Of a DNA stretch of 64,000 bases, positions 2,885 to 45,733 are shown piece by piece (position 1 is the first letter of the stretch; each line of letters starts with the position of its first letter). The DNA is from an uncultured Acidimicrobiia bacterium (GTDB lineage: Bacteria; Actinomycetota; Acidimicrobiia; Acidimicrobiales; Ilumatobacteraceae). Both the position numbers and the translations under genes were made by a program. The stretch lies in assembly GCA_963827075.1 (NCBI GenBank), contig CAWGZN010000002.1:54099-118098 (forward strand), read 5' to 3'. Under the pieces are notes generated by a model. That model was not told the origin of the DNA. It searched no databases and was given only the letters and a program-made list of their open reading frames with translations.

Positions 2885-2889
2885 CCACC

Positions 2890-3564
2890 GTGGGCCGACG
2901 GCCCGACGTCGAGCGGCGCCAGGAGCTGCTCGACCGCGTGGTCGCCTATCTCGCCGGCCACGGCCTGGCCGACGTCTCGCTGCGCCCGATGGCACGCGAG
3001 CTCGGCGTCAGCGTGAACGCCCTCGTCCATCACTTCGGCGCCAAGGAGGAGCTGGTGGTCGCAGCACTGCGACGGGCGGCCGACGTCCAGGCCGACCTCG
3101 AGCAGCGCTGGCTCGCCCGCCAGCCCGGGCTGACGGAGGCCGAGCTGTTGCGCCGGTGGTGGCGGTGGATCAACGCGTCGCCGGCGAACCTCGCGGTCGT
3201 GCGCCTCGGCATCGAGGCCGCCGCCCTCGACGCCACGACGAGCGGGTTGCCCGGGGCGGTGCGGGCCGACCAGATCGCCCCGTGGCGGGCGAACATCGAG
3301 CAGCGCCTCGTCGCGGAGGGGATGGACCCGGACGAGGCCGCGCTCGAGGCGCCGTTGGTCAAGGCGATGTTCACCGGCCTCGTCGTGGACCTCCTCGCCA
3401 CCGGCGAGCGGCGCCGGCTCACCGCCTCGCTCGAGGCCGGCGTCGCCCGCCTCGAACGCCGACGTCCATCCGAGTGTCTGACGCCGACCGAGTGTCTCGT
3501 GAGGGAGAGTCCCTCGGCAGACACTCCGACGGCGGGAAACACTCGGATGGCTACAGGTCTTTGA
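2890..3564 (+). CDS. TetR-family transcriptional regulator
   Basis: In-frame GTG 6 nt after the dehydrogenase stop. HTH region LRPMARELGVSVNALVHHFGAKEEL. The last ~30 codons are read out of repeat element A1, so the true C-terminus is uncertain. Confidence 0.75.
   Translation: MGRRPDVERRQELLDRVVAYLAGHGLADVSLRPMARELGVSVNALVHHFGAKEELVVAALRRAADVQADLEQRWLARQPGLTEAELLRRWWRWINASPANLAVVRLGIEAAALDATTSGLPGAVRADQIAPWRANIEQRLVAEGMDPDEAALEAPLVKAMFTGLVVDLLATGERRRLTASLEAGVARLERRRPSECLTPTECLVRESPSADTPTAGNTRMATGL
3466..3550. repeat. Family A nested-palindrome element, copy A1 (85 bp)
   Basis: CCATCCGAGTGTCTGACGCCGACCGAGTGTCTCGTGAGGGAG...CGGCAGACACTCCGACGGCGGGAAACACTCGGATGG. The core CCGAGTGTCT occurs twice direct and twice inverted. 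Related copies lie at 26773, 30226 and 45651. Confidence 0.85.
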
Positions 3565-5590
3565 CGAGTCGCAACGCGTCGTAGACGGCGGCGTGGATGT
3601 TCCGGCCGGCCACGGCGTCGCCGATGCGGAACAGCTGGAACCGGCCGTCGGGGTTCGTGGTCAGCGACTGCGGGCGACCCTCGAGGAGGGCGCCGTAGTC
3701 GACGGCGCCGAGGTTGCGCGACGCCGGCTTGAGCTCGAAGTACAGGTCGGCGGACGCGGCCGTTCCGTGGTCGGTCACCACCCAGTCGACGTGACGCACG
3801 CTCGAGGTGCGGGGAGTGGTCGCTGCCGACCTCGACGCACAGCCGCCCGTGCTCCGGACGCACGGCGTGCACCCGCTGGTTGAGCGTGATCCGCGTGTCG
3901 GTCTCGTTGAACGCCCGGGCGTACGGCACGTGGTTCATCCCGCCGACCTCGATGCCCAGCATCCGCTCGGGTGTGACGATCTCGAGGCGGGCGCCGGACC
4001 GGGCGATCATCTCCGCCGCCGACATTGCCGAGTGGGTGCCGTTGTCGTCGAAGAACAGGACCTCACCGGTGGGCGTGACGTCGCCGCCGATCACGTCCCA
4101 GCTCGTCACCATCCGCTCGGCGCCCTCGTCGATGTCCGGGAGCTGCGGCAGGCCGCCCGTCGCCACGATCACGACGTCGGGATCGAGGGCGGTGACGTCG
4201 TCCCCCTCGGCAATGACGTCGTAGCGCACGTCGACACCGAGGCGGGCGAGCTCGCTCACCCGCCACTCGACGATGCCCAGCAGGTCCTTGCGCCGGGGGT
4301 TGCGGGCGGCCAGCCGGATCTGACCGCCGGCCCACGGCATCGCCTCGAGCAGCACGACGTCGTGGCCGCGCTCGCCGGCGACCCGGGCCGCCTCGAGCCC
4401 GGCCGGGCCGGCGCCGACGACGACCACGCTCCGAGTCGTCGGCGCTTGCGGGATCTCGTGCGGCATCGTCTGCTCGCGGCTCGTCGCCGCGTTGTGGATG
4501 CACAGCGCCTCGCCGAACTCGTAGATCCGGTCGAGGCAGTACGTCGCCCCGACGCACGGCCTGATCTCGGCCTCGCGGCCGGAGATGATCTTGCGCACGA
4601 TGTGCGGGTCGGCGAGGTGGGCCCGGGTCATGCCGACGAGGTCGACCTTGCCCTCCCGGATGGCGTGGCGTGCCGTCGCCACGTCGTCGACCTTCGACGC
4701 GTGCAGGACGGCGAGCGACGTCGACGCCCGCACGTGGCCGGCGAAGTCGAGGTGCGGCGCCGACGGCATGCCGTGGATCGGGATCACGTTGATCAGGCGA
4801 GGGTCGGTCGCGATGTTGCCGCGGATGACGTTGACGAAGTCGACCAGCCCGTCGGCCTCCAGGCGGGAGAGGATCTCCAGCCCGGTAGCGGCGTCGATGC
4901 CACCGGCGCACGGTCTCGTCGACCGCCATCCGGATGCCGACGATGAACTCGGGACCGACCCGCTCCCGGATCGCCGTGAGCACCCGCCAGCCGAAGCGCA
5001 GCCGGTTCTCGAACGACCCGCCGTACTCGTCGGTGCGCTGGTTCGTGAGCGGCGACCAGAACTGGTCGAACAGGTGCCCGTAGGACTCGATCTCGATGCC
5101 GTCCATCCCGCCCGCCTGCATCCGCTCGGCGGCGTCGGCGTACTTGCCGACGATGCGGTCGATGTCCCAGTCCTCGGCCTCCTTCGGCACCGCCCGGTGG
5201 GCCGGCTCGCGCAGCGGCGACGGGGCGACGACCGGCAGCCAGTCGTCCTGGGCCCAGCCGGTGCGCCGACCGAGGTGGGTGAGCTGGATCATGCACGCCG
5301 CCCCGTGCTCGTGGATCTCGTCGGTCATCCGGCGGATCCACGGCACGATCTCGTCGTCGTAGGCGTGGAGGTTGCCGAACGCCGGCGGGCTGTCCTCGGC
5401 GACGACCGCCGACCCGGCCGTCATCGTCATCGCCAGGCCGCCCTTGGCCTTCTCGACGTGGTACAGCCGGTAGCGGTCCTTCGGCATGCCGTCTCTCGGA
5501 GTACGCCGGCTCGTGCGACGACGAGAAGACCCGGTTGCGCAACGTCAGGTGCCTCAGCTGGAACGGCTGCAGGAGCGGATCGTCAGCCAC
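3551..5590 (-). pseudogene. OYE-type NADH:flavin oxidoreductase with C-terminal FAD/NAD(P) domain (N-methylproline/dimethylglycine demethylase-like, 2,4-dienoyl-CoA reductase fold); frame-disrupted
   Basis: Recognisable segments lie in different frames. These are VADDPLLQPFQLRHLTLRNRVFSSSHEP; MPKDRYRLYHVEKAKGG...GIEIESYGHLFDQFWSPLTNQRTDEYGGSFENRLRF; ...RPCVGATYCLDRI...VVVVGAGPAGLEAA...; and ...DAVAGRNIHAAVYDALRLVKDL. Frame switches occur near 5490, 4900 and 3812. Confidence 0.75.
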
Positions 5591-11196: not shown

Positions 11197-12960
11197 TCAG
11201 ACCTGCGACGCCTTCTCGGTGAACATCTGACCGAGCGCCGACACCCGGACACCCTGGAAGCTGTTCGAGTGCCCGGAGAGGTAGTTGTAGAAGAACGGCA
11301 CGCCGATCGGGCACGTCCTCGTTCAGGATCGTCTGCAGCTTGCCGGCAGCCGCCGTCTGGGCGTCGACGCCGACGGCCTGCTGGAACTCGGTGAAGGCCG
11401 CGTCGAGCTCCGGGTTGGAGTACTGCGACGGAGTTCCAGACCCCGTTCGTCTTGAGCGCGGCGTTCAGGAACACGTCCGGCGTCGGCCGGTGCCCGTAGT
11501 CGACGATGCCCAGCTCGGCGGCCCCCGAGCACGGCGGATCGGCCGGCTCGGCCGGGCACCACTGCGCGCCGTAGAACGTGTCGAGGCTCTCGATGGCGAG
11601 CTCGAGGTTGATCCCCGCCTCGGCCGCGCCGGCCTGGATGAGCTGGGCGAGCTCGCGGGATCTCCTGCAGCTCGGCGACGTGCAGCGTGGCCTGCAGACC
11701 TTCGACGCCGGCGTCGGCGAGGAGCTGCCTGGCCATCTCGATGTCCTTGACCCGCTGCGGCGGCTGCGACGGGTCGAAGAACGGCATGAACGGGGCGATA
11801 GACGTGGTCGTTGCCGATCTCGGCCCGACCCTGGAACAACGTGTTGACCATCTGCTCGCGGTCGAGCGTGAAGGCCAGCGCCTGGCGGACGGCCTTGTCG
11901 GCGAACTGGCCGGTGTCGCAGCGCATCCAGATCTGGCGGTGGGTCGAGGATTCCACCTCGAGCACGGTGAAGTTCGGGTCGTTGAGCAGCGCGTCGCCGC
12001 CGAGGACCGAGAACTGGACGAGGGCGTCGACGGCGCCGCCCTGCATCGCCGTGACCATCGTGCCGACGTCGTCGAAGAACTGCACCTCCTGGCCGTCGAG
12101 CGGCGTCTGGCCGCCCCACCAGTCGGGGTTGCGCTCGAACGAGGCGCCGGTGGCCGGGTCGTAGCTCGCCGAGCATCCACGGCCCGGTCCCGTTGGGCGA
12201 GCCGTCGAGCGTGGTGCCGGTCTCGTAGTTGACCGGCGTGATCAGCGTCTGGGCGTTGAACACCGACACGAGGTAGGGGAAGTTGCCGTTCGGCCCCTCG
12301 AGGTTGAACACGGCCACGTTGGGATCGGTGGCGTCGACGGCGCCCTCGGCGATGACGCCCGCCAGGCCGGCGTTGTCGGCGACGACCAGCCGGTCCATCG
12401 TCGCCGCGACGTCGGCGGACGTGAACGGCGAGCCGTCGGCCTGCCACGTGACGCCCTGGCGCAGCTGGAACGTCCACACGGTGCCGTCCTCGTTCGGCTC
12501 CCACGATTCGGCCAGCCCGGGAGCGATCTCGCCGTCGTCGCCGAGCGTGACGAGGAACTCGAAGCACTGGGCGATGAGCCCGTAGGCGCCGAGGTCCTGC
12601 ATCGTCGATCGGGTCGAGGGTCGCCGCCGGCGTCTGGTAGGCGATCCTGATCGTGCCGCCCTGCTGGCCGGCGCCGGTCGTGCCGGGGGCGCCGGTGGTT
12701 CCGGGCGCGCCCGTCGTGCCAGGGGCGCCGGTCGTCCCGCTCGTTCCGCCCGGACCGGTCGTTGCGGGAGCGGAGGTGTCGTCGTCGTCATCGCCGCACG
12801 CGGCGATCACCGCGCCGATCATCGGCATCGACAGCCCGATGATCGTGCCCCGCCGGACGAAGTCACGCCGGCTGATCTTCCGGCTGGCGTACGCCTCGAT
12901 GAGATCGAGGTGGACGGGACCGACGGAACGACGAGTCCGGTCGAAGCGCTTCCAATCCAT
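11197..12960 (-). pseudogene. ABC transporter substrate-binding lipoprotein, family 5 (DppA/OppA-like), Tat signal; frame-disrupted
   Basis: N-terminus RRDFVRRGTIIGLSMPMIGAVIAACGDDDDD (twin-arginine + lipobox) followed by a (GAPGTT)n linker. Family-5 segments (VTWQADGSPFTSADVAATMDRL, ...FYGAQWCPAEPADPPC...) lie in alternating frames. There is a strong GGGGGAGGA Shine-Dalgarno sequence before the ATG at 12960. Confidence 0.8.
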
Positions 12961-19833: not shown

Positions 19834-19885
19834 CGTTCTGTCGGTCGGAAAGCGCCGAATGGCGCGTGTTCCGACCGACAGAACG
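19834..19885. repeat. Family B palindromic element, copy B1
   Basis: CGTTCTGTCGGTCGGAA-N18-TTCCGACCGACAGAACG (perfect 17-nt arms). The loop holds a second hairpin, GCGCCgaatGGCGC. It fills the gap between two convergent stops. Confidence 0.85.
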
Positions 19886-24546: not shown

Positions 24547-24659
24547 GGGTGTCTCCCCCTTTCTCGAGACGGGGCCGGTTCACGCACCAGAATGCTCGGC
24601 CGTGCCGTGGAGAGCGAAGCCTTTCGCTGGCACCAGCACCGGGAAGTCCGCCCCATGCC

Positions 24660-24783
24660 GGTTCTGATTGCGATTCACCCTCGCGGGTGACCGATTGCGC
24701 GCGGAACAATCGCGAGCACCGAACCACCGTCGGTTCTCCCGCGCGATCTGCGTCAGGGGTGACGGTGAATCGCAATCAGAACC
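24660..24783. repeat. Palindromic element D (124 bp, 20-bp perfect terminal inverted repeats)
   Basis: GGTTCTGATTGCGATTCACC ... GGTGAATCGCAATCAGAACC. The internal core GATTGCG/CGCAATC is reiterated. It lies between the galK stop and the acyltransferase start. Confidence 0.85.
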
Positions 24784-24788
24784 CGTAC

Positions 24789-26011
24789 TCACGCCACCCT
24801 TCCGGCGGGGGCGGCGGCCCGGGCGAGGAGGAAGGCGGGGCGAAGGAAGCCGGCGTCGATGAAGGCGCGGTCGATCGAGGTCGCCACGGCGTGCTCGGTC
24901 TCGGCGGGGACGAGGGCGATGGCCGAGCCGCCGAACCCGCCGCCGGTCATCCGGGCGCCGAGCGCGCCTTCGGCGCGAGCCACGTCCACGGCGAGGTCGA
25001 GCTCGACACACGACACTGCGAAGTCGTCGCGCAGTGAGCGGTGCGACGCATCGAGCACGGGACCGATCTCGCCGATCTGGCCCGCCTGCAGCGAACGAAC
25101 GACACAGTCGACGCGGTGCATCTCCGACACGACGTGGCGGGCGAGCGGATAGCTCTCGTCACCGACGACAGGCTTCAGCGCATCCTCCACCGCACCCTCG
25201 CTCGCCGCGTCGGCGACCTCGCGCAACGTCGTGACACCGAGCAACCGGGCCGCCCGTTCGCAGCCGCGCCGGCGCTCCTCGTAGCGGCCGTCGACGTTGC
25301 GGTGGGCCACCCGGGTGTCGATCACCAACAGCGCCAGCGCGGCGGCATCGAGCTCGAACGCGATCGGCGTCGCCGTGTCGTCGCGGCAGTCGAGCAGCAG
25401 CGCGTGCCCCGCCGTCGCCCGCATCGCCACGGCCTGGTCCATGCCCCCGGTCGGTGCGCCGACGAACCGGGTCTCGGCGTCCACGCCGACGGCCGCGAGC
25501 GCCACCTTGGTGGCGGGTCGGCGGGATCACCCCATCCCGAGAGCTCGGCCGCCGCCGACGCGACCGAACAGATCAGCGCGGCGGAGCTGGACAGTCCGGC
25601 TCCGATCGGCACGTCACTGTCGATCACCACGTCCAGGCCGGGGACGTCGGCGCCGGCCCGCTGCAGCGCCCACACCGCACCGGCCACGTACCGGACCCAG
25701 CCGCCGATGCCCGCTGCGTCGAGTTCGGCGACCGCGCCGGACCACGGCGGATGGCCCTGGGCCGACGCCACGTGCAGCTCGCCGTCGCCGCGCCGGCGAA
25801 CGGCGCTGAACGTCCGGTGGGGCAGGGCGATCGGGAGGCAGCGACCGGCGTTGTAGTCGACGTGCTCGCCGATCACGTTCACCCGACCGGGTGCTGCCCA
25901 CACGCCGTCCGGCCGGCCGCCCATCAGCGCGTCGAACGACTCGACCAGCCGCGCGACGGCGGCCTCGACGCCGTCCGACCGGTGCCAGTCGATCCCGTCC
26001 TCAGCTCCCAC
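24789..26011 (-). pseudogene. galK: Galactokinase; one frame switch
   Basis: N-terminus APGRVNVIGEHVDYNAG (galactokinase signature) and GAGLSSSAAL. The C-terminal frame has GAPTGGMDQ and RMTGGGFGGSAIALV. The switch is near 25515. The start overlaps the galT stop. Confidence 0.9.
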
Positions 26012-27203
26012 CGGCGAGCTCCCGCAGCCGGGTGGCGATGCGCTCCGGGGTGGTGTCGTTCACCCACGCCCCCATCGCCGACTCCGAGCCGGCGAGGTAC
26101 TTGAGCTTCCGCGGTGCCCGCATGATCGAGAACATGTCGAGGTGCAGCCGGCACAGGTCACGGCCCTCGCCGACGGGCGCCTGATGCCACGCGGCGATGT
26201 ACGGGACGGCGGCGACCTTCGGGTAGAACTCGTCGAACCGGCGCAGCAGCTCGGGATAGAGGCGGGCGAGCTCGTCGCGCTCCCCGTCGTCGAGGGCGGC
26301 GAGATCGGCCACGTGGCGATGGGGCACGACGCGGAGCTCCACTGGCCACCGCGCCGCGACGGGGACGTACGCCGTCCAGTGCTCGCCACGCGCCACGACC
26401 CGGGTGCCGGCCGCGACCTCCTCGGCGAGGAGATCGCCGAGCAGATCGCCCCCACCCCGCCCGCGATGCTGCTCGGCCTGCCGCAGCATCCCGGCCGTGC
26501 GCGGCACGACGAACGGGTAGGCGTAGATCTGACCGTGGGGATGGTGGAGGGTGACGCCGATCTCGCGGCCCCGGTTCTCGAACACCGACACCTGGGCGAC
26601 CCCCGGCCGGGCGGACAGCTCGGCCGTGCGATCGGCCCACGCCTCGATCACGGTGCGCACCCGCCCGACGTCGAGCTCGGCGAAGTGGGTGTCGTGGTCG
26701 CTCGTGAAGCACACGACCTCACACCGTCCGACGGCGGGCATGTCGGCCGTCTGCGCATCCGAGGGTTTACGGTCATCCGAGTGCGTCGTCCGGGACCCTC
26801 CCGCAGTAGACCCTCGGTCGGACTGAGACACTCGGATGGGGAGGCCGGCGAAGGACGGGAAGCGGTTCTCGAACACCGCCACGTCGTAGTCGTCGGCGGG
26901 GATCTCGGTCGGCTCGCGCCCGGGCCGGGTCGGGCACAGCGGGCACAGGTCGGCCGGCGGGAGATGGGTGCGGTCCATGCGGTGGGTCGCGAACGCGATC
27001 CACTCCCCGGACAGCTCGTCGAAGCGCATCCGGCTGTCGCTGGCATGCGGCTCGAGGGGACGGCGGTCGTCGAACGATCGTTGCGCCCGGCCGGACACGT
27101 ACGGCTCGGAGTCGTCGAAGTAGATCAGCTCCCGGCCGTCGGCGAGGTGGCCGCTCGACCGGCGGACCCGAGCCTTCCGGTGACGGGCGCGCGTCGCCGT
27201 CAT
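26001..27203 (-). CDS. galT: Galactose-1-phosphate uridylyltransferase
   Basis: Open 400-aa ORF with CPLCP, FENRFPSF, GRCEVVCFTSDH and HHPHGQIYAYPF motifs. It carries repeat A2 in-frame between FENRFPSF and GRCEVVCF. Confidence 0.9.
   Translation of the reverse strand: MTATRARHRKARVRRSSGHLADGRELIYFDDSEPYVSGRAQRSFDDRRPLEPHASDSRMRFDELSGEWIAFATHRMDRTHLPPADLCPLCPTRPGREPTEIPADDYDVAVFENRFPSFAGLPIRVSQSDRGSTAGGSRTTHSDDRKPSDAQTADMPAVGRCEVVCFTSDHDTHFAELDVGRVRTVIEAWADRTAELSARPGVAQVSVFENRGREIGVTLHHPHGQIYAYPFVVPRTAGMLRQAEQHRGRGGGDLLGDLLAEEVAAGTRVVARGEHWTAYVPVAARWPVELRVVPHRHVADLAALDDGERDELARLYPELLRRFDEFYPKVAAVPYIAAWHQAPVGEGRDLCRLHLDMFSIMRAPRKLKYLAGSESAMGAWVNDTTPERIATRLRELAGGS
26773..26839. repeat. Family A element, copy A2 (shorter, 67 bp), inside galT coding sequence
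   Basis: TCATCCGAGTGCGTCGTCCGGGACCCTCCCGCAGTAGACCCTCGGTCGGACTGAGACACTCGGATGG. It has the same termini and GGGA/CCCTC centre as A1, A3 and A4. Confidence 0.8.
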
Positions 27204-27204
27204 C

Positions 27205-27324
27205 TCACCCGCTGCCGTCGACGACGATCAGCCGGCCGACCTGCGCCTCGAGTGCCCGCCGGGCGGCCTCGGGCAACTTGTCGTCGGTGACGAGGATGTC
27301 GACCTCCGAGATCGGTGCGAGCAT
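27205..27324 (-). pseudogene. 39-codon remnant of a DeoR/GlpR-family regulator C-terminus
   Basis: Translation is MLAPISEVDILVTDDKLPEAARRALEAQVGRLIVVDGSG*. It resembles the conserved end of DeoR sugar-binding domains. Its ATG overlaps the GH42 stop (ATGA) and its stop lies 1 nt before the galT ATG. Confidence 0.55.
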
Positions 27325-29346
27325 CAGTCGCCCGGCGCTTCCCGCACCACCGCGCAGCCACCGGCCTCGACCGTCAACACGCCCTCGACCGCCCGATCAC
27401 TGACCAAATCATGCCCGCTGACGCCGACCGACACGTCGGAGGATCCGTGGTTGAGGACGAACAGCCAGGAGCCGTCGGTGCCCCGGCGGCGGGTCAGGTC
27501 GATCTCGTTCGGTGAACCAGCCGGCGTCACCGCCACCGGCGGCGTCACCCCAGCCTCCGCTGTCACGCGCGCGAGCAGGCGCTCGAGCGATGCGTCATCG
27601 AGCGCGGTGGCCACGTACCACGCGACCCCGGCGTCGACTCGGCGCACCGTGATCGCCGGCACGCCGGCGAGCGGCGCCGCCGTGTGGGCCGCGACGACCT
27701 CGGCACCCTGGCCCGGTGTGAGCCGCACACGTTCCGTCCAGATGCCGGCCCGGCTGCCGTCGCTCAGCTCGACCGTCGCGTCGGCAGAAAGGGGGAAGAA
27801 CTCCTCCACCAGCACCCCGAGGAGCTCCCGGAACGCGCCCGGGTAACCGCCGAGGCGCACGTGGTCGTCCTCGTCGACGATGCCGGAGAAGTACGTGACC
27901 ACGACGTGCGCGCCGGCGGCGGCCGCGTCCGCAACCGCAGTCGCCGTGCGATCGTCGCAGAGGTAGAGCGTCGGCACGATCACGACTCGGTACGCCGACA
28001 GGTCGTCGTGTGGGTGCACGACGTCAGTCGTCACGCCCATTCCGCGCAGGACGCGGTGGTAGGCGCGGGCGGCATCCGTTCCCCGCACGAGTGAGCTCGG
28101 CAGCGACGGTGCGTTGGTCGCCCACACCGACGGCCAGTCGAAGAGCATCGGCAACGTCGGCCGCGACGGTGCTGCCGCGCAGCTCCGACAACCGGCCGAC
28201 CACGGCCCCGAGCTCGGCGACCTCGCGGAAGCGGTGGGTGTCGGCGCCGGCGTGGGGAACGAGCGCGGAGTGGAACTTCTCCGACCCCGCCTGGGCGGCG
28301 CGCCACTGGAAGAAGGCGACCCCGTCGGCGCCTCGCGCGACGTGGCCAAGGGACGTGCGCATCATCTCGCCCGGCGCCTTGGCCCGGTTCACCGGCTGCC
28401 AGTTGACCGCACTCGTCGAGTGTTCCATGAGCAGCCACGGCTGCCCGCCGGCGACTCCTCTCGTGAGGTCGGCCACGAAGGCGAGGTGGGCGAGCGGGTC
28501 AGGCAACGCCCCGAGCACGTAGTGGTCGTTGGCGACGAGATCGAGCTCGGCCGCCCACGAGAAGCAGTCGACGCTGGCCTCGTGGCTCATGATGAAGTTC
28601 GTCGTGACCGGCACCGTCGGCGTGTGCTCGCGCAACAGATCCCGCTCGGCGACGAACTGGTCGCGCAGCGTGTCGGAGCTGAACCGGGCGAAGTCGAGCA
28701 ACTGGGTCGGATTGCTGAACGTCGTGCTTCGTCCGGGCGGCTGGATCTCTTCCCAGTCGCCGTACGCCTGGCTCCAGAACGTGGTGCCCCACGCCCGGTT
28801 GAGCTCGACGAGGTCGCCGTAGCGCTGCTCGAGCCAGCGCCGGAAGTGGGCGGCGCTGACCGGGCAGTAGCACCGGGCGTTGTGGCATCCGAGCTCGTTG
28901 CTGACGTGCCACATCGTCACGGCCGGGTGCCCACCGAACTCCTTGGCCAGCCGGTCGACGAGGACGAGCGAGTGCTCCCGGTACACCGGTGAGCTCGGGC
29001 ACCACGTCTGGCGACTGCCGAGCGCGTACCGCGCGCCGCGCTCGTCGACCGGGACGATCTCGGGGTGGAGGCGAGCGAGCCACGGCGGCGGCGAGGCCGT
29101 CCCCGTGGCCAGATCGACGCGGATGTCGGCGTCGTGGAGGCGATCGAGGACGCGCCCCATCCAGTCCGGATCGAACACGCCGGGGCGGGGCTCGAGGCGC
29201 GCCCACGCGAACACGCCGACCGTCACGAAGTTGACCCCCGCCCGGCCCATCAACTCGACGTCCTCGGCCCACACCGGCTCGGGCCACTGCTCGGGGTTGT
29301 AGTCCCCGCCGAAGGCCATCCGAGGCATTCCCCACGTCGGAGCCAT
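27324..29346 (-). pseudogene. GH42-family beta-galactosidase; one frame switch
   Basis: N-terminal 400+ aa (FGGDYNPEQWPEPVWAEDVELM...MWHVSNELGCH...WLLMEHSTSAVNWQ). The C-terminal trimerisation/beta domains (...VVIVPTLYLCDD...) are in another frame, with a switch near 28140. The start is 29346, 29328 or 29319. Confidence 0.85.
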
Positions 29347-29360
29347 CCGACAATTTCTCA

Positions 29361-29412
29361 CGTTCTGTCCTGTGGCACCGACCGCATCCGGTCGATCTCA
29401 AACGACAGAACG
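29361..29412. repeat. Family B palindromic element, copy B2
   Basis: CGTTCTGTC...CGACCGcatCCGGTCG...GACAGAACG. It contains the stop codon of the HMG-CoA lyase gene and the most upstream GTG of the GH42 ORF. Confidence 0.75.
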
Positions 29413-30219
29413 GATGAAGCCGAGTGCGGCGACGAGCTCCGGGACGCTGACGCCGGTCTCGTAGCCCTCGGCTTCCAACAACTGAACCAGATGCTCGGTC
29501 GCCAGGTTGCCGCCGGCGTCGGGCGCGAACGGGGAACCGCCGAGACCGCCGAGGGCCGTGTCGAACCGGGTGACGCCGAGATCGATCGCCGTCCACGCGT
29601 TGAGCAGCGCGGTGCCGCGGGTGTCGTGGAGATGCAGCCCGACGTCGGTGCCGACGCGGTCGAGCACGGCACGCACGCGCCGCGGCGTGCCGACCCCGGT
29701 CGTGTCGGCGAGCGTGACCTGATCGACTCCGGCGGCGCGGGCGTGGTCGACGAACACGGCGATGTCGTCGGGGGCGATGTCCTCGCCGTCGAACGGGGAG
29801 CCGAAGGCGCACGAGATCACCTCGTCCAGCACCGCGTCGGGCGCGGCGGCCCGGATCGCCTCGACCTGAGCGCGCGCCTCCTCGACGGTCATGCGGACGT
29901 TCTTCTCGCTGTAGGCGGGTGAGGCCGACACGGTGATCGTGAGGTGGTCGACCCCCGCGGCGGTCGCCAGCTCGGCGCCCTTCACGTTCGGCACGAGCGC
30001 CCACACGGTCACCCCGTCCGGCACGTCGGGCAGGACGGCGGCGACCACGTCGGCTCCGCCGGCCATCGCCGGCACCGCCTTCGGCGACACGAACGAGGCC
30101 GCCTCGACGTCGCGCAGCCCGGCGGCGAGCAGCCGGCGGACGAGCTCGATCCGGTCGCCGACATCGACCGGGCGCTCCCCCTGTAACCCGTCGCGGGCCG
30201 TCACATCGCGAATCCGCAT
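29398..30219 (-). CDS. Hydroxymethylglutaryl-CoA lyase
   Basis: MRIRDVTARDGLQ...FVSPKAVPAMA...HLHDTRGTALLNAW...GGLGGSPFAPDAGGNLATE, the HMGL-like TIM barrel. The ORF extends upstream into repeat A3, but the ATG at 30219 fits the family N-terminus. Confidence 0.88.
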   Translation of the reverse strand: MRIRDVTARDGLQGERPVDVGDRIELVRRLLAAGLRDVEAASFVSPKAVPAMAGGADVVAAVLPDVPDGVTVWALVPNVKGAELATAAGVDHLTITVSASPAYSEKNVRMTVEEARAQVEAIRAAAPDAVLDEVISCAFGSPFDGEDIAPDDIAVFVDHARAAGVDQVTLADTTGVGTPRRVRAVLDRVGTDVGLHLHDTRGTALLNAWTAIDLGVTRFDTALGGLGGSPFAPDAGGNLATEHLVQLLEAEGYETGVSVPELVAALGFIRSVV

Positions 30220-30225
30220 GCATCT

Positions 30226-30309
30226 CATCCGAGTGTCTTCAGCCAATCGAGTGTCTGGTGAGGGAGGGACCCGCACAACGCACTCCGATGGCACAGAGAC
30301 ACTCGGGTG
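30226..30309. repeat. Family A element, copy A3 (84 bp)
   Basis: CATCCGAGTGTCTTCAGCCAATCGAGTGTCTGGTGAGGGAGGGACCCGCACAACGCACTCCGATGGCACAGAGACACTCGGGTG. It fills the spacer between the carboxyltransferase stop and the HMG-CoA lyase start. Confidence 0.85.
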
Positions 30310-30313
30310 AACG

Positions 30314-32089
30314 TCAGACCGGGGGGATCCCATGTCGACGGTCCGCGAAATGTCGGTTCCTTGTTCGCGCCAGGGCGAGCCGGCGGATCAGCTCGTCACG
30401 CAGCCGGGACGGGTCGATCACGGCGTCGATCACGAGCTCCGACGCCAGGCGGAGCAGGTCGACGTCGGTCTCGTACAACGCCCGCTGCTCGGCGACGAAC
30501 TGCTGGCGCTCGTCGGGGTCCTCGATCGCCGCGATCTTGTTCGCGTAGACGGCGTTGATCGCGGCCTCCGGCCCCATCACGGCGATGCGGGCCGTCGGCA
30601 GGGCGATCGTGGCGTCGGGCTCGAACGCCGGACCTGACATCGCGTACAAGCCGGCGCCGTACGCCTTGCGCACGATCACCGAGAACTTCGGCACCGTCGC
30701 CTCGCTCACCGCCGTCACCATCTTCGCCCCATGGCGGATGATCCCCTGGCGCTCGACGGCGGAACCGATCATGAAGCCGGGCACGTCGGCGAGGAAGATC
30801 AGCGGGAGATTGAACGCGTCGCAGCACCAGATGAAGCGGGCGGCCTTGTCGGCCGAGTCGACGAACAGGGTGCCGGCGAGATGGGCCGAGTTGTTGGCGA
30901 CGATGCCGACCGGCTGACCGGCGAGGCGCCCCAATCCGACGATCAGCTCGCGGGCGTAGAGCGGCTTGATCTCGAAGAAGCTGTGCCGGTCGACGATCCC
31001 GTCGATCATGACGTGCATGTCGAACGGCACCCGCTCGTCGGCCGGCACGACGTCGTCGGCGAGCTCGACCTCGGGCGGTTCGCTCTCGTACACCGGCGGT
31101 TCGTGGCGCCATGACCGCGGGAAGTACGTCAGGTACGCCCGGGCCTGGTCGATCGCGTCGTGGTCGTCGGTGGCGAGGTTGTCGGCGCAGCCCGACTGCG
31201 TCACGTGCATGCGGGCGCGATTCATGACGTGCATGTCGAACGGCACCCGCTCGTCGGCCGGCACGACGTCGTCGGCGAGCTCGACCTCCGGCGGCTCGCT
31301 CTCGTACACCGGCGGCTCGTGACGCCACGAGCGCGGGAAGTACGTGAGGTACGCCCGGGCCTGGTCGATCGCGTCGTGGTCGTCGGTGGCGAGGTTGTCG
31401 GCGCAGCCCGACTGCGTCACGTGCATGCGGGCGCCACCCATCTCCTCGAGCGTCGTGATCTCCCCGACGACCATCTCGGCCATCCGCGGCGAACCGAGGT
31501 ACATCGAGGCGTTGCCGTCGACCATGAACACGACGTCGCAGAACGACGGCACGTACGCCCCGCCGGCCGCCGACGGGCCGAACAGACAACACACCTGCGG
31601 GACCTGGCCGGACAGCCGCACCTGGTTGTAGAAGATCCGGCCGGCCCCGCGCCGCCCCGGGAACAGCTGGACCTGATCGGTCAACCGGGCGCCCGCCGAA
31701 TCGACGAGCCACACGATCGGGACCTGCTCGGCCAGCGCGGCCTCGGTCGCCCGCACCATCTTCTCGACCGTGCGGGCGCCCCACGATCCGGCCTTCACCA
31801 TCGGGTCGTTGGCGACCACGACGGCCGGCACGCCGTCGATCGTGCCCCGGCCGGTCACGACCCCGTCGGCCGGCAGCCCAGTCGCCATGGCGTTGGCCAG
31901 CACGGCGTCCTCGACGAACGACCCGGTGTCGAGGAGCAGGTCGATGCGCTCGCGGGCGGTCAGCTTGCCCTGGCCGCGGATCTTCTCCAGGGCCCGCTCG
32001 TCGGGCGTGAAGGCGCGTTGCACGGCCGCCTGGATCTGCTCGCGCATCGCCGCCAACGGTACGCGATCCTTCGTTCTGTCGGTCGCCAT
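30314..32089 (-). CDS. Acyl-CoA carboxylase carboxyltransferase (beta) subunit, methylcrotonyl/propionyl-CoA type, with internal 72-aa duplication
   Basis: Open 591-aa ORF with carboxyltransferase motifs (KLTARERIDLLLD, SAGARL, FGPSAAGGAY, FLADVPGFM.G...E..GIIRHGAKM). The residues MHVTQSGC...FDMHVMNRAR occur twice in tandem. The first 7 codons are read from repeat B3, so the start may instead be the ATG at 32047. Confidence 0.88.
   Translation of the reverse strand: MATDRTKDRVPLAAMREQIQAAVQRAFTPDERALEKIRGQGKLTARERIDLLLDTGSFVEDAVLANAMATGLPADGVVTGRGTIDGVPAVVVANDPMVKAGSWGARTVEKMVRATEAALAEQVPIVWLVDSAGARLTDQVQLFPGRRGAGRIFYNQVRLSGQVPQVCCLFGPSAAGGAYVPSFCDVVFMVDGNASMYLGSPRMAEMVVGEITTLEEMGGARMHVTQSGCADNLATDDHDAIDQARAYLTYFPRSWRHEPPVYESEPPEVELADDVVPADERVPFDMHVMNRARMHVTQSGCADNLATDDHDAIDQARAYLTYFPRSWRHEPPVYESEPPEVELADDVVPADERVPFDMHVMIDGIVDRHSFFEIKPLYARELIVGLGRLAGQPVGIVANNSAHLAGTLFVDSADKAARFIWCCDAFNLPLIFLADVPGFMIGSAVERQGIIRHGAKMVTAVSEATVPKFSVIVRKAYGAGLYAMSGPAFEPDATIALPTARIAVMGPEAAINAVYANKIAAIEDPDERQQFVAEQRALYETDVDLLRLASELVIDAVIDPSRLRDELIRRLALARTRNRHFADRRHGIPPV
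31007..31438. repeat. Tandem direct duplication, 2 x 216 bp, in-frame within the carboxyltransferase gene
   Basis: 31007-31222 and 31223-31438 align base for base. They differ at 31073, 31079, 31100, 31106, 31112, 31115 and 31130, plus the last few junction bases. ACGTGCATG occurs at both unit boundaries. Confidence 0.95.
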
Positions 32090-44263: not shown

Positions 44264-45649
44264 TGGACACGTTCGACGTTGTCGTGATCGGGGCCGGGCC
44301 GGCCGGCGAGAACGTCGCCGGGCGGTGCGCGGACGCCGGACTGGAGACGGCGATCGTCGAGCGCGAGCTGGTCGGCGGCGAGTGCTCCTTCTGGGGCTGC
44401 ATCCCGTCCAAGACGCTCATCCGGCCGGGCGACCTGCTCGGCCGCGGCGCGGCGCGCTCCCGGTGCCGCCAGCGCGGTCACCGGACGGCTGGACGCCGAG
44501 GCGGCGTTCGCGTGGCGCAACCAGATGACGAGCGACTGGGACGACGCCGGCCAGCTGCCCTGGCTCGAGGACCGCGGGGTAACGCTCGTGCGAGGGATCG
44601 GACGCCTCGCCGGCGAACGCCGCGTCGACGTCGAGGCCGGCGACGGCTCGTCACGCGCCCTGTCGGCGCGACAGGCGGTCGTGCTCGCCACGGGGACCGG
44701 TGCATCCAGGCCGCCGGTGCCCGGCCTCGGCGACATCGAGGTGTGGGACAACCGCGGCGCGACCGCGGCGACCACGGTCCCGAATCGGCTGCTCGTGCTC
44801 GGCGGCGGCGCGATCGGCGCCGAGCTCGCCCAGGCGTTCCGCCGCCTCGGCGCCGACGTGACGGTGGTCGAGGTCGCCCCGCGGCTGATCGCCCGGGAGG
44901 AGCCCTTCGCCAGCGACGAGGTGCTCGCCGGTCTGCAGGCCGACGGCATCGACGTCCACCTCGGCGTCAAGGTCACGCACGTCGCGCGCGAGGGCACGGG
45001 CCCGGTCACGATGGGCCTCGACGGCGGCACGGAGCTGAGGGGCGACGAGCTACTCGTGGCCGCCGGCCGCCGCCCGTCGACTGGAGATCTCGGACTCGAC
45101 ACGGTCGGGCTCGAACCGGGCAAGTACGTCGACGTCGACGACCAGCTCTGCGCCACGGGTGTGGACGGCGGCTGGCTCTACGCCGTCGGTGACTGCAACG
45201 GTCGGTCCCTGCTCACGCACATGGGGAAGTACCAGGCCCGCATCGCGGCCGACGTCATCGCGGGCAAGGACGTGCGCAGCGTCGCCGACGACGGGATCGT
45301 CCCCCGGGTCACGTTCACCGATCCCCAAGTGTGCGCAGTCGGGCGGACCGAGGCCGAGGCGCGCGACAAGGGGATGGACGTGCGAACCGTCCGCTTCCCC
45401 ACCGGTGACGTCGCCGGGGCCTCGGTGCTCGGCGAGGAGTTCCCCGGCACGAGCCAGCTGCTCGTCGACAACGAGCGCGACGTCCTCGTCGGCGCGACGT
45501 TCGTCGGACCGGGCGTGCAGGAGCTGCTCCACTCGGCCACGGTGGCGATCGCGGGCGAGGTGCCCCTCGACCGCTTGTGGCACGCGGTGCCGTCGTTCCC
45601 GACGGTCAGCGAGGTGTGGCTGCGCCTGCTCGAGGCCGACGGCCGCTAA
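44263..45649 (+). pseudogene. Pyridine nucleotide-disulfide oxidoreductase (dihydrolipoyl dehydrogenase/mercuric-reductase-like); one frame switch
   Basis: [13 protein letters not shown]...[13 protein letters not shown] redox-active disulfide. There is a switch near 44440, then 374 aa are intact including the dimerisation domain. A TGATG overlap joins it to the ThDP enzyme gene. Confidence 0.85.
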
Positions 45650-45650
45650 C

Positions 45651-45733
45651 CACCCGAGTGTCTTCGTGCATCGGAGTGCGTTGTGAGGGGCCTTCCCGCA
45701 CGCGGCACTCGGTTGCGACAAGACACTCGGATG
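45651..45733. repeat. Family A element, copy A4 (83 bp)
   Basis: CACCCGAGTGTCTTCGTGCATCGGAGTGCGTTGTGAGGGGCCTTCCCGCACGCGGCACTCGGTTGCGACAAGACACTCGGATG. It begins 2 nt after a TAA stop, between convergent genes. Confidence 0.85.

Follow-up and report, generated by a model that had tools for sequence, protein, structure and literature searches.

An RPE-like palindromic element lies in-frame in the galT gene of an uncultured actinobacterial clade

Results

The galT gene of this uncultured actinobacterium carries a genuine in-frame palindromic element, similar in kind to the Rickettsia palindromic elements (RPEs) and belonging to a dispersed repeat called family A. Four copies of family A, the galT copy included, occur in the window (the whole stretch of 64,000 nt that was analysed), and the galT copy is a degraded, atypical member of the family. 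The original prediction that the galT ORF stays open across such an element was confirmed by its stop-free translation (...FENRFPSFAGLPIRVSQSDRGSTAGGSRTTHSDDRKPSDAQTADMPAVGRCEVVCFTSDH...) and by a full-length match of the galT copy to a family A profile (model positions 2-84, E 6.7e-15, nhmmer, 1.86-Mb search space). This profile was built from only the three other window copies (3467-3549, 30226-30309 and 45651-45733), the galT copy being excluded. The peptide quoted in the prediction and its flanking motifs FENRFPSF and GRCEVVCF were also correct. The relevant features at the galT locus are as follows.

26001-27203, minus strand: galT (galactose-1-phosphate uridylyltransferase) ORF of 400 aa, with Pfam PF01087 and PF02744 and matches to GalT entries of the PDB in sequence and fold
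26730-26849, minus strand: 40-aa loop, codons 119-158, between strands 108-112 and 160-165 of the AlphaFold2 model
26756-26839, minus strand: full family A copy, delimited by the profile and by alignment with the other copies; core 26756-26838, 83 nt; encodes IRVSQSDRGSTAGGSRTTHSDDRKPSD
26773-26839, minus strand: sub-segment of this copy bounded by a perfect 10-bp inverted repeat, CATCCGAGTG / CACTCGGATG

The product of 26001-27203 is a GalT (HIT superfamily, branch III) by its domains, HPH motif, Cys/His ligands and fold. Both the N- and the C-terminal GalP_UDP_transf domains were matched (Pfam), residues C87, H170, H221, H223 and Q225 are invariant in a 118-sequence alignment in which C90 is kept in at least 90% of the sequences, and the structural model matches 6k5z, 5in3 and 1hxp with E values of 1e-23 to 1e-26 (Foldseek). 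The stretches CPLCP, SDH and HHPHGQ contain what we take to be the equivalents of the metal-binding and active-site residues of E. coli GalT.

The element had initially been placed at 26773-26839 (67 nt). It actually extends over 26756-26838/39 (83-84 nt), and the shorter interval covers the perfect inverted repeat only. Pairing there is between the outer-left arm (CATCCGAGTG) and the inner-right arm (CACTCGGATG), a shifted register that differs from the canonical nested hairpin of the family. Since the core runs from the third base of the P122 codon to the first base of the A150 codon, encoding I123-D149, the extra peptide amounts to 27-28 aa instead of the ∼22 residues first proposed. The estimate of ∼40 aa for the linker between FENRFPSF and GRCEVVCF was accurate (40 aa, residues 119-158); the equivalent E. 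coli linker (M83-R103) is presumably ∼21 aa, part of it being visible in the alignment.

When mapped on a structure model, as had been suggested, the insert falls in a low-confidence loop between two strands. The AlphaFold2 model has a mean pLDDT of 88.3 and a pTM of 0.90, and the 10-residue blocks of residues 121-150 drop to pLDDT values of 64, 46 and 55. The element-encoded insert is predicted to form a hydrophilic, floppy surface-loop segment of GalT. Among the matches listed (n=166 actinobacterial orthologues), the length of this loop varies from 4 to 71 aa with a mode of 23, and the comparison of orthologues supports a loop that would tolerate length change.

The three other copies of the window are dispersed outside galT.

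3467-3549: family A copy whose arms are of the GTGTCT type and whose hairpin is strong (-56.7 kcal/mol)
30226-30309: family A copy filling the spacer that separates two minus-strand genes, one for a carboxyltransferase (stop 30314-30316) and one HMG-CoA-lyase-like
45651-45733: family A copy beginning 2 nt past the stop of a pyridine-nucleotide-disulphide oxidoreductase gene (44525-45649, plus strand)

The family A unit is ∼83-84 nt long and has no coding capacity of its own. It is composed of two direct 13-nt arms (CATCCGAG[T/G]GT[C/T]T, with a period of 18 nt), a G+C-rich apical stem-loop and both arms inverted, so that it is bounded by 13-nt terminal inverted repeats with the termini CATCCGAG...CTCGGATG (CATCC...GGATG). 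Four to five of the six frames are stop-free in most copies. Besides the internal copy of galT, two ORFs were seen that enter copies at their 3' ends. The TetR-like ORF 2689-3564 (plus strand) runs into the 3467-3549 copy, its last 32 aa corresponding to the element plus 15 nt, and an acetyl-CoA-synthetase-like ORF of the relatives' locus L081 also reads into a 3'-flanking copy and is 30 aa longer than its counterpart in locus L172.

In relatives, copies outside galT were found at L085 208-292 (orthologous to the window copy 30226-30309), L081 16713-16795 and L172 11660-11779. Neither the galT peptide nor the repeat was found in ∼160 loci (∼1.7 Mb) of other, more distant Actinomycetota, and family A was seen in this survey only in the window and in loci of close relatives. 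The occurrence of the peptide in genomes free of family A had been put forward as the finding that would speak against an inserted element; it was not observed, as the peptide carriers L085, L081 and L172 all hold non-galT copies. A pattern scan of viral contigs returned no match. At the gathering threshold, Rfam reported no family in the whole window except a tRNA, and at a relaxed threshold it gave sub-threshold matches of miRNA-precursor hairpins to the 3467 copy only and nothing at galT. Scanning the galT region for promoters and terminators gave no hit either. Finally, a protein-database search with concatenated element peptides gave no match at E <= 10, a result that is uninformative since a query of 27 aa is too short to reach significance against 5.8 billion sequences. 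Judged from these sequence comparisons, family A appears to be a genuine, undescribed and lineage-specific actinobacterial repeat family with a REP/MITE-like nested palindrome.

The named GalT relatives of the window, best among the matches listed, belong to Kineosporiaceae, Pseudonocardia and Quadrisphaera (62-65% identity). Scanning genome contigs with GalT yielded relatives that are all at most 63% identical among the matches listed, which served to survey loop lengths but offered no empty site, and scanning metagenome contigs yielded relatives of at most 61% identity and no close orthologue DNA. The DNA loci of close orthologues were consequently those traced one by one from protein-database entries. 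Eleven independent metagenomic orthologues with 80-94% identity have the element, or what is left of it, at the same codons, and orthologues with at most 79% identity are without it. The expectation that the extra residues would be missing from orthologues is borne out at or below 79% identity but fails for the close relatives (80-94%). As the element is shared down to ∼80% identity, close relatives show no empty site, and its presence at the same site in these orthologues indicates that the insertion is not recent.

The galT copies of the clade differ in their degree of completeness. Full-length copies are found in P0001/P0130, P0003 and P0002, and the longest loops of the clade are those of the window and P0002. 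An 18-nt (six-codon) outer-left arm unit is missing in P0005 and P0004, additional right-side losses of 18-30 nt are found in P0006, P0007 and P0012, the element is mostly deleted in P0011 and P0008, and it is absent from P0013 and P0015-18. Full-length and shortened forms co-occur in three sequence groups (drawn from the identity matrix) and the P0130 and P0003 copies have homologous spacers, which argues for the full-length form being ancestral. The element was recovered from independent assemblies of several samples, and in relatives it resides in operons whose called genes are full length: L085 and L172 have GH42-deoR-galT-galK, and L083 has GH42-deoR-galT with galK continuing past the contig end.

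The rate at which the element changes is strikingly uneven between lineages. The elements of P0130 and P0003 are 0.85 identical (0.83/0.83/0.90 at the three codon positions), compared with 68% for third positions and 61% for fourfold sites in the rest of galT; third-position identity of this pair is highest over the element. In the window lineage, the element accumulated 15 derived substitutions versus 3 in the sister lineage, i.e. five times faster, and its rate is about twice the third-position rate. These derived changes fall evenly on codon positions in the element (5/6/4) and mainly on third positions in the rest of galT (4/1/30), where 35 derived changes include only 2 amino-acid changes. 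The distribution of changes shows purifying selection on the rest of galT in the window lineage. A slow element in P0130/P0003 together with a fast one in the window lineage implies that simple neutral decay fails to fit all the data.

The uneven rates are paralleled by the hairpin state. The canonical nested hairpin, in which outer arms pair with outer arms and inner arms with inner arms, is kept in P0130 and P0003 and lost in the window galT copy. The latter folds in the shifted register with a minimum free energy of -37.4 kcal/mol (z -0.05 to -2.5) and is the sole one among nine copies in which columns 10/78 and 29/60 depart from the subtype covariation. In codon-shuffle folding, the window copy and the shortened orthologous forms are not significantly structured, and we do not claim for this reason a universal selection on the hairpin.

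Discussion

We favor, with good confidence in the account as a whole, a scenario of insertion, translation and vertical decay. One copy of family A would have entered the codons of the GalT surface loop in a common ancestor of this uncultured actinobacterial clade, with a net insertion of a multiple of three nucleotides. Because four to five of the six element frames are stop-free, the galT ORF could have remained open. The element would then have been inherited vertically and have diverged through point substitutions and in-frame deletions, two of which match a lost 18-nt arm unit in size and position, such as direct-repeat slippage might give. Since the arm period of 18 nt equals six codons, the loss of a unit preserves the reading frame. 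The window copy would represent a late, degraded stage, during which the flanking GalT stayed under purifying selection, and we infer that GalT is made and active with its insert. Points that count against this scenario are the length of the element core (83 nt), which three does not divide, the misfit of simple neutral decay described above, and the damage to neighbouring gal genes in the window described below.

Could the intragenic copy instead be maintained for its nucleotide sequence, as an mRNA or DNA hairpin or as four protein-binding arms, with the peptide as a by-product? This explanation is on the unlikely side. The P0130 and P0003 elements are far more similar (0.85) than fourfold sites elsewhere in galT (0.61), and P0130, P0003 and P0002 form hairpins of -50 to -60 kcal/mol with z scores of -6 to -8 against mononucleotide shuffles and, for two of them, of about -5 against codon shuffles. 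The P0002 and P0003 elements both fold fully while being only 57% identical. Besides, the arms show compensatory changes (GGGTTT:AAACCC to GGTTTT:AAAACC, and CTT:AAG in P0007), such changes affect 12 of 32 pairs family-wide, the observed covariation was reached by none of 500 shuffles, and hairpins are also retained by the window copy 30226-30309 and its intergenic orthologue L085 208-292. However, the constraint is not universal, as the window copy is without the canonical hairpin (z -1 to -2.5), shortened forms fold no better than codon shuffles and several lineages have deleted most of the element. The samples are also small (87 nt), conservation of the arms extends beyond pairing to their sequence, quasipalindrome-templated mutation or gene conversion could mimic selection, and no terminator, promoter or Rfam family was found in scans of the galT region. 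Putative targets of such a dual use include mRNA stability or processing, ribosome pausing and DNA topology in the gal operon, and this reading supplements the insertion scenario without replacing anything in it. In its most elaborate version, the galT copy would be a selected dual-coded element (a ∼40-bp hairpin or four-site array) regulating the fate of the gal mRNA or DNA structure, and freed from selection in the window lineage roughly when the upstream DeoR-type gene was deleted; we view this version as doubtful. It assumes nucleotide conservation across the clade with synonymous sites near saturation. From the sequence patterns, a nucleotide-level function of the galT element is possible.

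An alternative is repeated ectopic gene conversion, by which dispersed copies overwrite the galT copy, whole or patchwise. Such concerted evolution would cover both the palindromy kept in relatives and the mosaic arms of the window copy. In the latter, the outer-left (GTGTCT) and inner-right (GTGCGT, reverse complement) arms are like those of the dispersed window copies, whereas the inner-left (GGGTCT) and outer-right (GGGTTT, reverse complement) arms are like those of the relatives' galT copies. Three diagnostic derived sites agree with all three dispersed copies, the changes came as a burst (15 versus 3 in the sister lineage) and the inner-left arm of P0002 is identical to that of the dispersed L081 copy. 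Conversely, the window galT copy is not closer to dispersed copies (0.66-0.74) than to orthologous galT copies (0.74-0.76), L172 and L085 each combine a galT copy of the GGGTTT type with dispersed GTGTTT-type sequence on one contig, and the A-type sites are non-contiguous. Agreement with the dispersed consensus is limited to 4 of the 15 derived sites, no more than expected by chance, so gene conversion is kept here simply as a rival, and an improbable one. It is also rather improbable that the apparent tolerance of GalT is illusory in the window genome, galT being part of a decaying, non-functional gal cluster. Compared with L172, 633 nt of deoR and the 2.1-kb GH36 gene are missing from the window, and 1-nt indels (near 25517 and 28149) split its GH42 and galK genes, so that the activity of the gal pathway is uncertain in this genome. 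Yet the galT ORF itself is intact, 30 of the 35 derived changes outside the element are at third positions with only 2 amino-acid changes, one of the indels falls within a run of C and may have arisen in assembly, and relatives with full-length operon genes bear the element. A recent insertion private to the window genome, with an empty site in close relatives, was implied by the original prediction and would agree with the window loop being, together with that of P0002, the longest in the clade. The same-site element in the eleven independent 80-94% orthologues refutes it, leaving it a very small probability. Finally, a native low-complexity loop resembling the repeat by chance, or an assembly artefact, has next to no likelihood. 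G+C-rich DNA folds well by chance and the folding energy of the window copy is unexceptional, but this reading is contradicted by the profile match over the full model (E 6.7e-15) and by the copies of relatives in independent assemblies of several samples; in addition, the other long GalT loops of the 166-orthologue survey are tandem peptide repeats without hairpins.

How does this insertion compare with known repeats? The consensus and length of family A are presumably unlike those of RPE-1 to RPE-10, and its 2+2 arms with an 18-nt (six-codon) period are a further distinction. The galT element may best be viewed as analogous to RPEs and is not filed as a member of them. The proposal of an actinobacterial RPE analogue tolerated in an enzyme surface loop holds in the sense that the insertion is in-frame at a fold-compatible position, with an open ORF, a low-confidence and length-variable loop, and purifying selection acting on the rest of the protein. 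RPEs were described by Ogata et al. (2000 Science 290:347; 2002 Genome Res 12:808; summarised in PMC10969869). Within the scope of that summary, both RPEs and family A appear as short dispersed palindromes located between genes and in-frame in housekeeping or metabolic genes, translated as a fold-compatible extra peptide and common to the orthologues of related species (PMC10969869). As summarised there, RPEs differ by their host (Alphaproteobacteria versus high-G+C actinobacteria), their length (∼100-150 nt versus 83-84 nt) and their dozens of in-frame copies in R. conorii, versus one internal copy and two 3'-end run-ins for family A (PMC10969869).

Other small repeats share part of these properties. 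Enterobacterial RU/ERIC sequences, for which intragenic cases are documented (Delihas 2007, PMC2759123; review PMC3184786), are MITE-like palindromes, mainly intergenic, with some intragenic copies that add open reading frame, as in family A; they occur in another taxon, measure 127-168 bp and presumably have another make-up. In contrast to them, the intragenic family A copy is conserved clade-wide, with conservation at the nucleotide level. REP/BIME sequences resemble family A as G+C-rich imperfect palindromes located just past stops or between co-directional genes, with a lineage-specific consensus and compensatory maintenance of the stem (PMC3733652). A REP is, however, a single hairpin of 20-40 bp, tagged at one end by GTAG or CGTC, and is associated with RAYT transposases (PMC3733652), whereas family A is a nested palindrome of 83-84 nt with the ends CATCCGAG...CTCGGATG and without a GTAG/CGTC tag. 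As for MITEs, family A has 13-nt terminal inverted repeats, is small, non-autonomous and multicopy, and forms in-frame fusions with host ORFs (PMC10969869). A target-site duplication is not visible at any family A copy compared, none flanks the nine copies consistently, and no parent insertion sequence with matching ends came to light in the DNA analysed.

To our knowledge, in-frame protein-coding palindromes are textbook matter only for Rickettsia, with scattered enterobacterial cases. The galT case extends them to free-living, high-G+C and uncultured actinobacteria. Full-length, arm-unit-reduced and near-erased copies at one orthologous site offer a record of how an insert ages in an enzyme gene. 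The main point of interest lies in the rates: in two lineages the element evolves more slowly than synonymous sites, and in the window lineage it changes about twice as fast as third positions. These uneven rates make it testable whether nucleotide-level selection or palindrome-specific mutation acts on intragenic palindromes, for which the galT element provides a small and tractable system.

An in-frame palindromic element in galT

Repeat finding and alignment delineated four related segments in the window, every one of them a nested palindrome of ~83–84 nt:

3467-3549: 3' end of a TetR-like ORF, which reads into the copy
26756-26839: inside the galT ORF (26001-27203, minus strand, 400 aa, both Pfam GalT domains)
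30226-30309: fills the gap separating a carboxyltransferase gene from an HMG-CoA-lyase-like gene
45651-45733: begins 2 nt past a stop codon

From 5' to 3', this family A repeat consists of an outer arm (CATCCGAGTGTCT), a 5-nt spacer and a direct second arm (18-nt period), then a G+C-rich apical stem-loop and both arms inverted. Since the test had to stay independent, an nhmmer profile was made from the three non-galT copies only; in a search space of 1.86 Mb, it matched the galT copy at 26756-26838 across model positions 2-84 (E 6.7e-15). Together with the open ORF, this match confirms the original prediction of a family A element embedded in frame in galT, with corrected boundaries. The interval initially proposed, 26773-26839, does belong to family A but is therefore just a portion of the element, where the outer-left and inner-right arms happen to make a perfect 10-bp inverted repeat. 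Re-translation of the ORF also reproduced the predicted open frame, peptide and both flanking motifs, the frame being stop-free over FENRFPSF-AGLPIRVSQSDRGSTAGGSRTTHSDDRKPSDAQTADMPAV-GRCEVVCFTSDH. The element core begins at codon position 3 of P122 and ends at codon position 1 of A150, and the fully element-encoded residues are I123-D149 (27 aa).

The galT product matches PF01087 (8.6e-28) and PF02744 (3.2e-15) in Pfam as well as the E. coli and human GalT structures through sequence, and its predicted fold matches GalT structures in Foldseek (E 1e-23 to 1e-26). In an AlphaFold2 model built from 118 sequences (mean pLDDT 88.3, pTM 0.90), the insert is placed between strands 108-112 and 160-165, with 10-residue pLDDT blocks of 64, 46 and 55 over residues 121-150. 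Such low values would be expected of a flexible surface loop.

GalT was translated from 166 listed actinobacterial loci, and the loop was defined as the segment from the FENRFPS[FL]-type motif to GRCEV. Its length ranges from 4 to 71 aa (mode 23; window 40). Long loops of other lineages are tandem peptide repeats encoded by DNA that does not form hairpins (codon-shuffle z ~0), and palindromic loop DNA is found among these loci only in the clade studied here. Loci L146, L153, L167, L125 and L009, from other Actinomycetota, have loops expanded to 39-71 aa by such repeats (e.g. RGAGPAL x4, GTGQP-type), likewise devoid of hairpin-forming DNA. The GalT loop is, in general, prone to expand in frame.

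An ancient, probably single insertion followed by deletions

The original prediction had envisaged that the extra residues might be missing from close relatives. The element is not confined to the window genome. Metagenomic GalT orthologues share 75-90% identity with the window protein by BLASTP (70-95% by alignment), and in the DNA of twelve of them codon alignment and profile search traced the element, located at the same codons where present.

State of the galT element in metagenomic orthologues
Full-length: P0001/P0130 (94% identity to the window apart from the loop), P0003, P0002
Outer-left 18-nt arm unit missing: P0005, P0004
Outer-left unit missing and another 18-30 nt gone on the right: P0006, P0007, P0012
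Mostly deleted: P0011, P0008
Absent: P0013, P0015-P0018 (<=79% identity)

Three of the four sequence groups that we drew from the identity matrix mix full-length and shortened elements, and the window's group holds full-length ones only. The P0130 and P0003 elements have homologous spacers. The simplest history would be a single 2+2 insertion in an ancestor, after which in-frame deletions occurred repeatedly. The left-side gap has a size and position that suggest slippage between direct-repeat arms; as the 18-nt arm period equals six codons, such slippage would drop whole codons. An ancient, clade-wide insertion, degraded in the window copy, is the supported reading.

Family A outside galT

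Beyond galT, the profile search retrieved family A copies elsewhere only in contigs of close relatives:

L085, 208-292: collinear with, and hence orthologous to, window 30226-30309 (83% alignment, 2 gaps)
L081, 16713-16795: full family A
L172 (closest relative), 11660-11779: two short 1+1 forms

There was no match in ~160 listed loci (~1.7 Mb) of other Actinomycetota, nor in viral contigs. Peptide-bearing orthologues lacking family A repeats had been named beforehand as counter-evidence; relatives' contigs instead hold copies outside galT. Arm sequence differs between genomes and sites: the window's dispersed copies carry GTGTCT, those of L085 and L172 carry GTGTTT, and both the L081 dispersed copy and the relatives' galT copies carry GGGTTT.

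Several copies touch genes. The TetR-like ORF (2689-3564, plus strand; HTH at residues 86-126) runs through 3467-3549, so its final 32 aa are element plus 15 nt. The 30226-30309 copy spans its entire intergenic spacer, and no obvious Shine-Dalgarno precedes the HMG-CoA-lyase-like gene; within window 30213-30233, an in-frame ATG for this gene is contributed by the copy's terminal ...CTCGGATG and lies 9 nt ahead of the gene's likely start (ATGCGGATTCGCGATGTG, MRIRDV). The acetyl-CoA-synthetase-like/ApbA-like spacer contains a different palindrome in each genome, namely the L081 and L172 forms listed here and, at window ~19835-19885, a mismatch-free 16-bp stem (GTTCTGTCGGTCGGAA...TTCCGACCGACAGAAC) unrelated to family A. 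This spacer looks like a hot spot for palindromic-element insertion. The L081 acetyl-CoA-synthetase-like ORF is 30 aa longer than that of L172 because it runs into the family A copy.

Nucleotide conservation in relatives and decay in the window

In an alignment of nine family A copies, 85% of cells are paired, compensatory changes occur at 12 of the 32 pairs, and none of 500 shuffles attained the observed score; the nested hairpin is maintained family-wide through covariation. In P0130, P0003 and P0002, the galT copy still folds at -50 to -60 kcal/mol, equal to intergenic copies, with a codon-shuffle z of ~-5 for the first two.

Identity between P0001/P0130 and P0003
Overall: element 0.85; rest of gene 0.82
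Codon positions 1/2/3: element 0.83/0.83/0.90; rest 0.87/0.91/0.68
Fourfold-degenerate sites: element 0.92 (12 sites); rest 0.61 (185 sites)

Both lineages thus keep the element conserved at the nucleotide level, in a pattern unlike that of amino-acid conservation.

Derived substitutions, P0003 as outgroup
Element (87 sites): window lineage 15; P0130 lineage 3
Element, codon positions 1/2/3: window 5/6/4; P0130 2/1/0
Rest of galT (1074 sites): window 35; P0130 33
Rest, codon positions 1/2/3: window 4/1/30; P0130 5/8/20
Amino-acid changes, rest: window 2; P0130 8

The contrast between element and rest is significant (Fisher p 0.017; when P0002 serves as the outgroup, 0.0017). In the window lineage, the element evolved at about twice the third-position rate and lost the canonical hairpin, its galT copy being the sole breaker of subtype covariation among the nine, while the substitution pattern indicates that GalT itself remained under purifying selection. 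Ectopic gene conversion of the window galT copy is suggested by its arms, which seem to be a mosaic of window-type and GGGTTT-type sequence; however, the dispersed consensus is matched at only 4 of the 15 derived sites, which is chance level, and conversion is therefore retained as a rival only.

The gal cluster and other features of the window

Compared with L172, the window has lost ~633 nt (211 codons) of the gene for a DeoR-type regulator, which lies between GH42 and galT, and the 2.1-kb GH36 gene after galK. The deoR gene occupies this interval in all relatives' contigs fetched (L172 1495-2277); its remnant lies at window 27204-27323, with a junction at ~27291-27320 where the two alignment blocks overlap by 30 nt. 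At the GH36 (alpha-galactosidase) place (window ~24644-24783; L172 4822-6919), there is instead a 53-nt inverted repeat (24660-24712/24731-24783), and an inverted duplicate of part of the galK 3' flank. Single-base changes split two genes into overlapping ORFs: galK (24789-26011, minus strand) lost one C from a C-run near 25517, and the GH42 beta-galactosidase gene (27324-29361, minus strand) gained one base near 28149. These deletions and indels could be real decay or assembly errors. The strongly synonymous pattern of galT argues for a gene that was functional until recently at least, and the relatives' element-bearing galT genes lie in operons with full-length called genes.

Elsewhere, an FAD/NAD-dependent oxidoreductase ORF (3030-4787, minus strand) has an Arg/Pro-rich nonsense translation beyond ~residue 330, which suggests another frameshift. 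The carboxyltransferase gene (30314-32089, minus strand), whose domain is split into two stretches by Pfam, contains a 216-nt tandem duplication at 31006-31437 (72 codons, copies 96% identical). The longest inverted repeat of the window is a 77-nt pair, 49867-49943/61764-61840 (86% complementary, 11.8 kb apart), unrelated to family A.

Relation to known elements

According to a recent review, in-frame fusions of intragenic MITEs are not unusual, Rickettsia palindromic elements (RPEs) being the extreme case (PMC10969869; PMC2759123). The galT copy behaves like RPEs and intragenic enterobacterial RU/ERIC elements. However, family A differs from RPEs, as described rather than by sequence, in phylum, length and architecture; unlike REPs, it is not small and carries no GTAG/CGTC tag (PMC3733652). 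Rfam holds no matching family, no consistent target-site duplication surrounds any copy and no parent IS was identified. Family A is not a REP, and it is probably not a member of the RPE or RU/ERIC families. A limited literature search, which is weak evidence, found no such element described in Actinobacteria, and the review PMC10969869 is silent on the phylum.

To conclude, the in-frame element in galT is confirmed and its interpretation as a translated palindromic insert is supported. More interestingly, its conservation at the nucleotide level among relatives may be due either to function or to mutation and conversion specific to palindromes.
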